From NCBI RefSeq assembly GCF_054482525.1, contig NZ_CM137006.1: 64,000 bases of DNA. The stretch is one strand, 5' to 3'. The number at the start of each line of letters is the position of its first letter. Position 1 is the stretch's first letter. Position numbers: made by a program. Below, piece by piece: positions 59,801-64,000 of this stretch.

Positions 59801-62800
59801 TTATTCCGGCGGTGGCATTCAGCGGCGCTAAACATGAGAGAGAGCATACTGATATTTACTCCTCATGCCGTCTGATAGTGCGGAAAAACGGTGCTGAAAT
59901 TTATAACCGTACCGCGCTGGATAATACGCTGATTTACAGTGGCGTTATTGATATGCCTGCCGGTCACGGTCACATGACGCTGGAGTTTTCGGTGTCAGCA
60001 TGGCTGGTAAATGACTGGTATCCCACTGCGAGCATCAGCGATTTGCTGGTTGTGGTGATGAAGAAAGCCACTGCAGGCATCACTATTAGCTGAATTTTAT
60101 AACCCAGATACGGGCGCCAGAAATGGCGCCTTTTTTATTGCAGAAAAGCGAGAGGTAATTATGCGTAAATTATGTGCTGTTATTCTGTCCGCAGTAGTCT
60201 GGCTGGTTGCCGCTGGTACGCCAGCGAGCGCAGCAGAGCATCAGTCCACACTAAGCGCCGGGTATCTTCAGACCCATACTGATATGCCAGGCAGCGATGA
60301 CCTGAAGGGCATTAATGTGAAATACCGTTATGAATTTACGGACACGCTGGGGCTGGTGACGTCATTCAGTTATGCCAATGCCAAAGATGAGCAAAAAACG
60401 CATTACAGCGATACCCGCTGGCATGAAGATTCAGTGCGTAACCGCTGGTTCAGCATGATGGCGGGGCCATCTGTACGCGTGAATGAATGGTTCAGTGCTT
60501 ATGCGATGGCAGGTGTGGCTTACAGCCGTGTTTCGACTTTTTCCGGGGATTATCTCCGCGTAACTGACAGCAAGGGGAAAACGAACGATGTGCTGACCGG
60601 AAGTGATGATGATCGCCACAGCAACACGTCTCTGGCGTGGGGAACTGGCGTGCAGTTTAACCCGACCGAATCCGTGGCCGTTGATATTGCTTATGAAGGT
60701 TCCGGCAGTGGCGACTGGCGCACTGACGGTTTCATCGTGGGTGTCGGTTATAAATTCTGATTAGCCAGGTAACACAGTGTTATGACAGCCCGCCGGTTCA
60801 GGCGGGCTTTTTTGTGGAGTGGATATGGCAGCAGTAAAAATCTCAGGTGTGCTGAAAGATGGTGCGGGAAAACCAATACAGAACTGCACTATTCAACTGA
60901 AGGCAAAGCGTAACAGCACCACGGTACTGGTGAACACGGTGGCCTCTGAAAATCCGGATGAAGCCGGGCGTTACAGCATGGATGTTGAGTATGGCCAGTA
61001 CAGCGTCATCCTGCTGGTTGAAGGTTTTCCGCCTTCACATGCCGGGACCATTACCGTCTATGAAGGCTCCAGACCAGGTACGCTGAATGATTTTCTCGGT
61101 GCCATGACGGAAGATGATGTCATGCCGGAGGCATTGCGTCGTTTTGAGGAAATGGTGGAAGAAGCGGCACGCAACGCTGAAGCCGCCTCTCAGAGCGCAG
61201 CGGCGGCAAAGAAATCAGAAACTGCAGCGGCATCATCGAAGAACGCGGCGAAAACCTCAGAAACGAATGCAGCTAACAGCGCACAGGCGGCAGCGGCCTC
61301 ACAGACTGCATCAGCAAACTCCGCGACAGCAGCCAAAAAATCAGAAACCAACGCGAAAAATAGCGAGACAGCCGCAAAGACGAGCGAAACCAACGCAAAG
61401 TCCAGCCAGACGGCAGCGAAAACCAGCGAAACGAATGCCAAAGCCAGTGAAACTGCGGCAAAAAACAGCCAGGTTGCAGCAGCCCAAAGCGAGAGCGCGG
61501 CAGCCGGTTCTGCGACTTCAGCAGCTGGATCAGCAACTGCTGCGGCTAACAGCCAGAAAGCTGCGAAGACGAGTGAAACTAACGCAAAGTCCAGCCAGAC
61601 GGCAGCGAAGACCAGCGAAACGAATGCCAAAGCCAGCGAAACTGCGGCGAAAAACAGTCAGGATGCAGCAGCCCAAAGCGAGAGTGCTGCAGCTGGTTCT
61701 GCAAGCGCGGCGGCTGCTTCTGCCACTGCATCAGCCAACAGTCAAAAAGCAGCAAAAACCAGTGAAACCAATGCAAAGACAAGCGAGACTGCAGCGGCGA
61801 ACTCGGCGAAAGCATCGGCAGCAAGCCAGACAGCAGCTAAAGCAAGTGAAGACGCAGCCAGAGAGTATGCAAGTCAGGCAGCAGAGCCGTATAAATATGT
61901 CTTACAGCCACTGCCTGATGTGTGGATACCGTTTAACGATTCACTGGATATGATTACGGGCTTTTCGCCGTCATATAAAAAAATTGTTATTGGTGATGAT
62001 GAAATAACGATGCCTGGCGACAAGGTTGTTAAGTTTAAACGCGCATCAACTGCCACATATATCAATAAATCAGGCGTATTTAGTGTTGCTAAAATTGATG
62101 AGCCACGATTTGAAAAAGAAGGTTTATTGATTGAAGGACAGCGCACTAACTATTTTGTTAAATCCAATACTCCCGCTGAATGGACGAGTACCAGCAATAT
62201 CGATAAAACTAATAATGGTGTTGATGAATTTGGTTTTTCATATGCCAAAATGCGAACAAAAGATAATATGACAGGACAATCATCTGCACTTAGTCTGCAT
62301 ACATGCAGTGCATCCCGGGGGATTGATGTTAGTGGCGATAATAAGTATTGCACTGTTTCATGCAGGGTTAAAGCTCCTGATGGTCTTCGTTGTCGTTTGC
62401 GTTTTGAAAAATACGATGGGTCGGTTTATACATTTTTAGGAGATGCTTATTTAACTTTCGGAACTCTGATAATAGAAAAAACTGGCGGAGCAGCCAATAG
62501 AATAGCAGCTACTGCAACTAAAGATCCGGTTACAGGGTGGATTTTCTATGAGGCAACTATAGAAGCTGTTGAAGGTGAAACCTTAATTGGCGCAATGATT
62601 CAGTATGCGCCGAAAAAAGGTGGTATAACTGAAGCGGGAGATTATATTTACCTTGCAACACCACAATTTGAAAACGGCGGATGTGCTTCATCTTTTGTTA
62701 TTACGACAACTGCACCCGCAACCCGCTCCAGTGATATGGTGACGATCCCAACTGAAAATAATATCTATAATAGACCGCTTACGTGTCTTGTCGAGGTTAA

Positions 62801-64000
62801 TAGAAATTGGGGCGATATTCCTCCTAATGTAGCACCGCGTATTTTTGATTTTTCTGGTGTGCCACCTATTGAGTCAATTACATACGCTTTTAACACAACT
62901 GAGAAATATTACGGTCAGCTTTATATGCAGACTTATAAAGCGTCGACAAGTACTTACGTTTCTAGTGTGTTTGCTGGTCGAACTGATGTTCGAAAATTCA
63001 TTGGTGGTTTTAATATTTATTCTGATGGTACTAAACGAGTAGTTTCTAACGGTGAGGCTACTAAAACTATGAAAACGGAGTGGACGGGCGTAAAAACACG
63101 GACCTTTATTCGAATTGGAGGTCAAGCCACATCGGGAACTCGTCATCTATTCGGCCATTTGAGAAATCTTCGTCTCTGGCATAAAGAATTAACTGATGCG
63201 CAAATGGGGGAGAGTATTAAATGAAAGATTTAACACTCAAATTTGCAGACAGGGCCGACTTTTCGGCCTTTATGGAGAGCATTGGCTATTATGATGACGA
63301 GTCGATGCAGGATGATATTCTTATTGACGTGATAGGTAATGTGTACAAAGAAACCGGAGAACTTACTGAAGATGGCGAGCCGGTATGTGTTAAGGAGGAC
63401 GGATATTTTGTAAACGTGCGCATCATTAATGATTCGCAAATATCGTCATTATTCGATGAATACGCGGTTGCTGTTGAGCATCAACTTCGTGGCTGGATGT
63501 GAGGAAGGAAAATGGCTACATCGACAGTAATTCCTGATGATATCAAAACGCTAAAATCCGACGTTAGCAAATTAAAAAACGATCAAGGGAGCTACGCAAC
63601 AAAATCATATGTAGACAATAAAACAACATGGAATAGTTATTGCAATGTAATCTATGATCAAAAGACATTGCCGACCACTGGAACTATATTTAGCGGTAAG
63701 ATTCACTTGTCAAATAAGACAGGAGAAACCGAAAACGCTTATAGTGAGATGTACACCAGAAAAAATATTGACGGTACAAAAGATACAATGACAAGGATTG
63801 TCACACACAATGGAACAAAAGGTATCTTTTGGGATTTTAGCGATCTTTACGGCGGAACATTAATTTTTCCAGGCAGTGATGGTTACCTTAAGATGGGGAA
63901 CTGTCTCATGTCGTATGGTGTGCGGGGAAGTAACGCGCTTATTAAGTTTGACTGCACAGACACATTACAAATCAAATATGCCAATCATGGGTCAACCATG

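Follow-up and report, generated by a model that had tools for sequence, protein, structure and literature searches.

The late operon of a lambda-like Escherichia coli prophage probably encodes, at its distal end, a composite side tail fibre, made of the side tail fibre protein Stf, a small acidic protein that we call S, and a second fibre protein that we call F2, and drawn from an exchangeable, AT-rich host-range cassette. We reached this view by analyzing a 64,000-nucleotide stretch of contig NZ_CM137006.1 (RefSeq assembly GCF_054482525.1), hereafter the window, whose end lies in the interior of the prophage and carries, in order, J, lom, stf, the S gene, and the F2 gene. A sequence-only reading of the window had proposed a repeat-bearing side tail fibre followed by an AT-rich cassette of unassigned genes. 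Positions 61900-64000 are 100% identical to four complete E. coli genomes, and one of these, strain W46 (locus L001), supplied the sequence past the window end. The features on which the argument turns are as follows:

60825..63224, + strand: stf, side tail fibre, with the ATG start given by RefSeq (799 amino acids) and a full-length match to PHROG 1419 ("tail protein")
60831..61220, + strand: PF08400 (phage_tail_N) tail-attachment domain, Stf residues 5-134
61131..61898, + strand: alanine-rich heptad-repeat shaft, residues ~105-360, with SETNAK-type heptads and a 63-amino-acid higher-order duplication
61899..63221, + strand: Stf distal module (residues 361-801), with which the AT-rich cassette begins; a conserved 85-amino-acid N-flank, two variable domains predicted to be jelly rolls, and a conserved C-flank (GHLRNLRLWHKELTDAQ)
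62127..62729, + strand: first predicted jelly roll, Stf residues 437-637, "phage head spike fiber" family NF048003 (NCBIfam E = 1.6e-15, 58.1 bits against a cut-off of 36)
63221..63502, + strand: S, 93 amino acids, isoelectric point 4.05, its ATG overlapping the stf TGA (ATGA)
63513..64000, + strand: 5' part of F2, residues 1-162 of 346, in a frame that leaves the window; full-length match to PHROG 4563
63513..63557, + strand: F2 N-terminal peptide (MATSTVIPDDIKTLK; in general form M[AV]TxTxIPxDIxxLK), conserved in five phage groups

We propose that Stf would attach to the tail by its PF08400 domain, extend as a heptad coiled-coil shaft, and end in two lectin-like jelly rolls rather than in a Tfa-requiring tip of the lambda/T4 type, placing three lectin-like units at the shaft end. 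S, an obligate partner of the module that the ATGA overlap would cause to be made in step with Stf, would bind the conserved module flanks, help to assemble or organize the distal end of the fibre, and probably stay as part of the joint. F2 would fold with its own Peptidase_S74 (S74) chaperone and most likely dock by its 15-residue N-terminal peptide onto the assembly of Stf module and S. The resulting fibre would combine two fibre proteins, probably in a branched form, and carry two receptor-binding units.

Pairing of S with the Stf module and of F2 with S

S, in which the sequence-only reading had rightly seen an acidic 93-codon frame coupled to the stf stop, matches PHROG 1361 along its whole length (E = 5e-46; residues 1-93 on profile positions 1-92 of 92). 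A tblastn search found S homologues in 181 phage records, spanning lambda-like phages (phage 21, ev243, and lambda recombinants), Drexlerviridae/T1-like phages (KarlJaspers and others), Dhillonvirus (KarlBarth), Nonagvirus (JenP1, JenP2, and ESCO3), T5-like phages (L6jm and IrisVonRoten, where S is gp23), and rV5-like myoviruses (EmilHeitz). Every phage record that we inspected places S directly behind a large lateral fibre gene, with an overlap of 1 or 4 nucleotides; a profile hidden Markov model (HMM) of the module matches the C-terminus of 90/90 fibres preceding an S gene, and S was never seen apart from the module in the loci examined. Distant homologues on metagenomic contigs (31-40% identity) again overlap the stop codon of a fibre gene whose product has this module at its end, and the fibres at these loci include one with a different N-terminus and no second fibre behind it and another of 1711 amino acids. 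So strict a pairing across six phage groups appears to be undescribed in the accessible portions of the literature on these fibres.

The S homologue of the rV5-like phage EmilHeitz (locus L094, 5001-5333) is longer, at 110 amino acids, and stands behind a 1478-amino-acid lateral fibre with the same module. The gene that follows it lacks the F2 N-terminal peptide, which suggests that the module and S are used in a different fibre network in rV5-like phages.

S has no relative in Pfam, NCBIfam, or PDB sequences, whether the query was S itself, 25 members of its family, or a profile. The family is narrow: HMMER, run exhaustively against 1.8 billion cluster representatives, recovered only 50 clusters. 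The databases that we searched assign it no function, and the accessible parts of the literature on the BASEL collection (2021 and 2025), DT57C (2016 and 2023), phage 9g, Gifsy-1, lambda-STF engineering, and RcGTA give the small protein no role. The sequence-only reading had found no obvious tail fibre assembly gene, and indeed PF02413, the Tfa family, matches none of the four cassette proteins. We also considered whether S is a truncated Tfa and rejected this: S has no PF02413 (Caudo_TAP) match and is not similar in BLASTP to an authentic remnant of Tfa, a remnant that PF02413 recognizes at 9e-18. The role of chaperone or adaptor that had been suggested for S fits its strict genomic coupling to the fibre gene.

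We regard as very improbable the alternative that S is not a fibre component but cargo, such as an anti-defence or regulatory protein, hitch-hiking in the cassette. Cargo genes are frequent downstream of tail fibre genes, and no family assignment provides S with a function; a hitch-hiker, however, would have to account for the strict start/stop overlap with the fibre gene in all lineages examined, lytic T5-like and rV5-like phages included, for the fact that S is never seen without the module, and for its constant place between two structural genes of the late operon.

The second fibre, in turn, appears tied to S. F2 with its peptide stands at 109 of 132 S loci (109/126 once contig edges are excluded), while a small membrane protein comes directly after S at 12, other genes at 5, and contig ends at 6. 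Searching in the other direction, with a degenerate DNA pattern for the peptide at the gene start, we found S directly upstream in 112/112 testable loci, so the frame running off the window belongs to the same fibre cassette and not to an unrelated adjacent element. S does occur without F2, at no fewer than 12 prophage loci, at locus L007, and in two functional phages, phage 21 and ev243, which each have Stf and S but no second fibre. The dependency is thus nested, with the module-S pair as its core and F2 present only where this core is. Most of the counts derive from E. coli prophages that are related to one another, and they are not independent samples; the rule is nonetheless also seen across six S clades in five phage groups. 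A universal N-terminal peptide found solely behind S appears, like the module-S pairing, not to have been described in those parts of the fibre literature that were accessible.

The lectin-like module, the second fibre, and their proposed joint

The proximal half of Stf is that of a lambda-type side fibre. The PF08400 domain is recognized far above threshold (E = 6e-67, 224 bits against a cut-off of 26.6), and residues ~105-358 are 34% alanine, with 16 in-frame heptads of SETNAK, SETAAK, or SQTAAK type; we infer that this shaft forms a trimeric coiled coil. Tandem Repeats Finder reports periods of 21, 42, and 189 nucleotides, the last in an array at 61362-61796 (2.3 copies, 83% matches, score 604) that is far beyond chance. 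Shaft length differs across 70 relatives, mostly by multiples of seven amino acids (-14, -49, -91, -105), although 62/70 share one length. The long, length-variable repeat array described earlier is therefore real; position 61150, given as the start of the feature, is the start of the repeats only, and the gene begins at 60825, or at 60819 if the open reading frame (ORF) is taken from its GTG (60819-63224, 801 amino acids). Long alternative-frame ORFs cross the repeats, one at 61114-61953 in the +2 frame (279 amino acids, rich in Arg, Gln, Lys, and Pro) and several rich in Ala, Phe, and Leu, with the minus strand concerned at 61190-61824, and are most simply by-products of the low-complexity heptads.

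Beyond the shaft, the ~440-residue module is predicted to comprise two lectin jelly rolls of the ConA/LamG type, related to the head-spike fibre of RcGTA. An AlphaFold2 model, a monomer built on 20 diverse homologues, is all-beta with a predicted local distance difference test score (pLDDT) of 83 and a predicted template modelling score of 0.81. Foldseek searches of the PDB with this model returned tandem laminin LG4-5, a sialic-acid-binding CBM40, the lectin-like domain of botulinum neurotoxin (BoNT) Hc, and pentraxin, together with chains of the baseplate/tail-fibre complexes of phages Pa193 and E217. Direct alignment of the Stf distal part to RcGTA Rcc01080 (6tb9) is weak. Capsular polysaccharide is the ligand of Rcc01080, a flexible fibre rich in beta structure (PMC7296036, PMC10218006), and the BASEL authors call the equivalent end of IrisVonRoten Gp22 "galectin-like" and see in it a potential additional receptor-binding domain (PMC11990801). 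Judged by its fold and by these relatives, the module of this prophage would most likely bind surface polysaccharide, O-antigen or capsule, with its variable faces.

Conservation within the module is strongly uneven. In the family profile, the first 85 and last 40 residues are conserved, whereas Stf residues ~445-620 and ~680-760 are highly variable. Module residues 17-42 (Stf ~377-402; window 61947-62024) are among the best conserved, with 80-85% consensus identity, yet fall below a pLDDT of 50 in the monomer model, a pattern typical of a segment that is bound to a partner or folds in the trimer, and we consider them a candidate contact site. Over 117 distinct S/module pairs, S identity correlates with that of the N-flank (Spearman rho 0.77) and C-flank (0.78) and only weakly with that of the variable centres (0.24-0.39), while it does not track the F2 body (-0.19; eight loci, 21 pairs). 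The flank correlation fits contact between S and the flanks and, equally, exchange of the centres within a conserved frame.

F2 starts at 63513, and the fibre-like frame suspected at the window edge proves to be that of a 346-amino-acid fibre in the four genomes that are identical over 61900-64000. Its S74 intramolecular chaperone domain (PF13884, residues 227-278; E = 6e-14, 52.4 bits, cut-off 22) falls outside the window, and we took its sequence from the W46 locus. The motif ...NQHSDRDLKDNI aligns to the gp37 fibre of Salmonella enterica phage S16 (6f45, ...SSDRRIKKDI), with the conserved serine at the cleavage site, and the fibre region resembles fibres of the T4 gp34/gp37 type. Since F2 carries its own S74 chaperone, it needs no Tfa. 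Of the cassette that had been called unassigned, only S still deserves the word: the distal part of Stf has an NF048003 match and a predicted lectin fold, and F2 is a standard S74 fibre.

Two main F2 types stand behind near-identical S genes, one of 234 amino acids (42 loci) and one of 346 (25 loci); they share their first ~15 residues, and S74 is present in all F2 types tested. The same peptide opens the F2 of Nonagvirus, Drexlerviridae, Dhillonvirus, and T5-like phages, is kept even where the F2 body has been swapped, and is conserved across six S clades and at least two F2 body types. From this pattern of conservation, we infer that it is a docking peptide. The commonest F2 is the shorter type (PhiR49_1, locus L002 7613-8317, and 42 IMG/VR loci), in which S74 begins at residue 116; once self-cleaved, the mature protein would be a coiled-coil stub of ~115 residues without an obvious receptor-binding domain, and might serve as a cap.

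That stub is also one of two observations that speak for a different account of F2, in which it is an independent fibre or accessory that sits at another tail site, or only caps, and is never attached to Stf; on this account, the order of the genes would stem from common regulation and from their transfer as a unit. The other is that F2 bodies are swapped independently of Stf and S. We hold this account to be improbable. The F2 peptide is conserved across five phage groups whose tail tips differ, and the constants alongside it are the Stf module and S; moreover, the models and genetics of IrisVonRoten and DT57C put the second fibre on the first (PMC11990801, PMC4728585).

A more serious alternative, though one that we still judge rather unlikely, concerns S itself. 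It could be a transient, non-structural chaperone, comparable to Tfa, gp38, or gp57A or to a removable "chaperone cap," that serves the folding or trimerization of the shaft/lectin junction and is absent from the virion, with F2 docking on Stf alone. S shares with tfa both its position behind stf and its translational coupling, it is small and acidic, and it is kept without F2 in phage 21 and ev243; cognate chaperone caps that travel with fibres have a precedent in Alteromonas phages (PMC10579305). S, however, is unlike any known chaperone family or fold, and a transient helper would leave unexplained why the F2 peptide never occurs without S, although linkage alone could suffice for this.

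The composite fibre in which S forms part of the joint also has evidence weighing against it, beyond the relatedness of the prophages that supplied most of the counts. The tagged RcGTA head-spike fibre, when made in E. coli, bound cells with no partner stated (PMC7296036, PMC10218006). The covariation of S with the flanks could come from recombination of the centres only, within a conserved frame and with no contact. The IrisVonRoten description, in its accessible part, names two fibre proteins only (PMC11990801). Lectin jelly rolls usually fold by themselves, and this, together with the expression of the RcGTA fibre alone, weakens a pure folding-chaperone role for S, the transient role above included. 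Because the F2 peptide is never found without S, because lectin domains are unlikely to need a chaperone, and because the RcGTA relative could be expressed alone, we lean toward a role for S that is at least partly structural; and because S is kept where F2 is absent, it cannot be solely an F2 adaptor.

A bolder extension of the composite-fibre reading is that S and the module flanks together form a universal "socket" for the 15-residue F2 "plug," common to lambda-like, T1-like, Dhillonvirus, Nonagvirus, and T5-like phages. We offer this only tentatively and consider it less probable than not; were it true, distal fibres could be exchanged between unrelated phages without re-adapting the attachment site.

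Mosaic exchange and comparison with known fibres

The composition of the locus changes where its protein architecture changes. Guanine-plus-cytosine (GC) content is 0.54 over the part of stf that encodes the N-terminus and shaft, falls to 0.40 in the remainder of the gene, and is 0.42 in both the S and F2 genes, and the break at ~61900, close to where a drop had already been noticed, coincides with the exact start of the Stf distal module at residue 361. The module, S, and F2 are alike in being AT-rich and differ in this from the remainder of the prophage, which speaks for a mobile cassette of foreign origin. Comparisons between phages bear out the horizontally exchanged module that had been suspected: the cassette genes recur at 75-99% protein identity in lambda-like and lytic Nonagvirus phages, with breakpoints at the module start and the F2 start. 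PhiR49_1 matches the window at 99% in Stf and 98% in S but has the other F2 type, whereas PhiR11_1 shares F2 at 89% and differs in S (33% by BLASTP, 36% in global alignment) and in the module (43%). HannyBb and the lytic Nonagvirus ESCO3 share S at 91-97% and F2 at 75-79%, with the module alike in its flanks only.

Fragments of tfa persist farther downstream, past a ybcY-like methyltransferase gene, in PhiR49_1 (L002 9704-9838) and ev243 (L096 5500-5805); PF02413 confirms the ev243 fragment (E = 9e-18), and the PhiR49_1 fragment is known by annotation only. They resemble relics of a former lambda-type stf-tfa end, one that the lectin cassette displaced.

The closest described counterpart is in the T5-like phage IrisVonRoten (Bas32), for which the BASEL report describes Gp22 as the proximal fibre and Gp24, which has an intramolecular chaperone, as a distal T-shaped fibre (PMC11990801). 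Its genes follow the same order as ours: a large fibre, the 92-amino-acid gp23 (39% identical to S), and a second fibre with an S74 chaperone. Gp22 ends in the same C-terminal module (HMM E = 2.5e-192), and Gp24 opens with the same peptide (MVTKTVIPTDITKLK). The systems differ in that our Stf has a lambda-type PF08400 N-terminus and not the T5 Ltf/LtfC attachment, in that F2 has 346 amino acids here against 574 in the dual-domain T-shaped fibre, and in that the element here is a prophage; the part of that paper available to us gives the small protein no role (PMC11990801).

The T5-like phages DT57C and DT571/2 carry branched, L-shaped fibres of LtfA and LtfB, in which LtfB is held via LtfA and N-terminal docking has been proposed (PMC4728585, PMC10713586). 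The likeness extends to two consecutive fibres with receptor-recognition regions of their own, to proteolytic processing, and to recombining receptor-binding parts. These papers mention no S-like small gene (PMC4728585, PMC10713586), and the LtfB docking region is related to phiEco32 gp15, unlike the F2 peptide. Our locus shares with both of these systems two consecutive fibre genes, the first with a tail-attachment N-terminus and the second with a conserved N-terminus and a varying body.

Ur-lambda Stf/Tfa resembles the present fibre in the PF08400 domain, the alanine-rich heptad shaft, and the place after J and lom; here, however, the distal half is replaced and Tfa (PF02413) is absent, with the lectin-like module, S, and a second fibre as the tip. 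With Rcc01080 (GhsB) of RcGTA, the likeness is one of a beta-rich, lectin-like domain, supported by the NF048003 match above cut-off and set against the weak direct alignment noted above. Rcc01080 is a single chain of 325 amino acids with an N-terminal peptide anchor on capsid pentons, whereas the domain here is carried distally on a presumably trimeric tail-fibre shaft, with a second LamG-type domain after it and S as its companion.

Prophage setting and meaning for fibre biology

The following features place the cassette within the prophage:

25272-26294: prophage integrase gene
56698-60093: J, after the prophage head and tail genes
60161-60760: lom, between J and stf
60787..60808, + strand, equal to L001 7177-7198: terminator-like hairpin in the gap between lom and stf, GC-rich with a T-run, a consensus match only

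This hairpin is the sole signal of note from a scan of the cassette for promoters and terminators, in which counts were not above those in shuffled sequence. In W46, an IS200/IS605 tnpA insertion (L001 7347-7805) lies between the lom terminator and stf, where the window has none (60809-60818); it is an insertion polymorphism just 5' of stf, despite the 100% identity over 61900-64000.

The W46 prophage ends ~2 kb past the window end, adjoining zinT. There the cassette is closed by a 95-amino-acid hydrophobic protein of PHROG 1443 (L001 11695-11982, ~1.7 kb beyond the window end) with a GC content of 0.52, which differs from that of the AT-rich genes preceding it. The phage 21 record annotates a homologue with two transmembrane segments, and in at least 12 prophage loci, as in ev243 and in phage 21 itself, the protein stands directly behind S without a second fibre. 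Receptor-blocking or exclusion genes occupy a similar position. Elsewhere in the window, away from the prophage, lie genes for an inverse autotransporter adhesin of 2895 amino acids (15135-23822, - strand), with an IAT_beta domain and 18 Big_1 and 14 Invasin_D3 repeats, and an RHS-repeat protein of 1393 amino acids (3729-7910, + strand).

The architecture and its exchangeability have already been described (BASEL 2021, 2025; Golomidova 2016), and this copy is a common element: 1796/5426 complete E. coli genomes match some part of 61900-64000, 50 of them over at least 80%. Its value is chiefly practical and lies in fibre engineering. Side and lateral fibres set the O-antigen or capsule types that a siphophage or an engineered lambda particle can reach, and this is a cassette without a Tfa requirement. 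In designing chimeric Stf proteins, breakpoints and accessory genes can be chosen by the rules seen here: S always accompanies the module, F2 always stands behind S with its fixed peptide, and the centres are swapped inside conserved flanks. The main biological question that the cassette poses, a clear and readily testable one, concerns the role of S, a small protein that is conserved across six phage groups.

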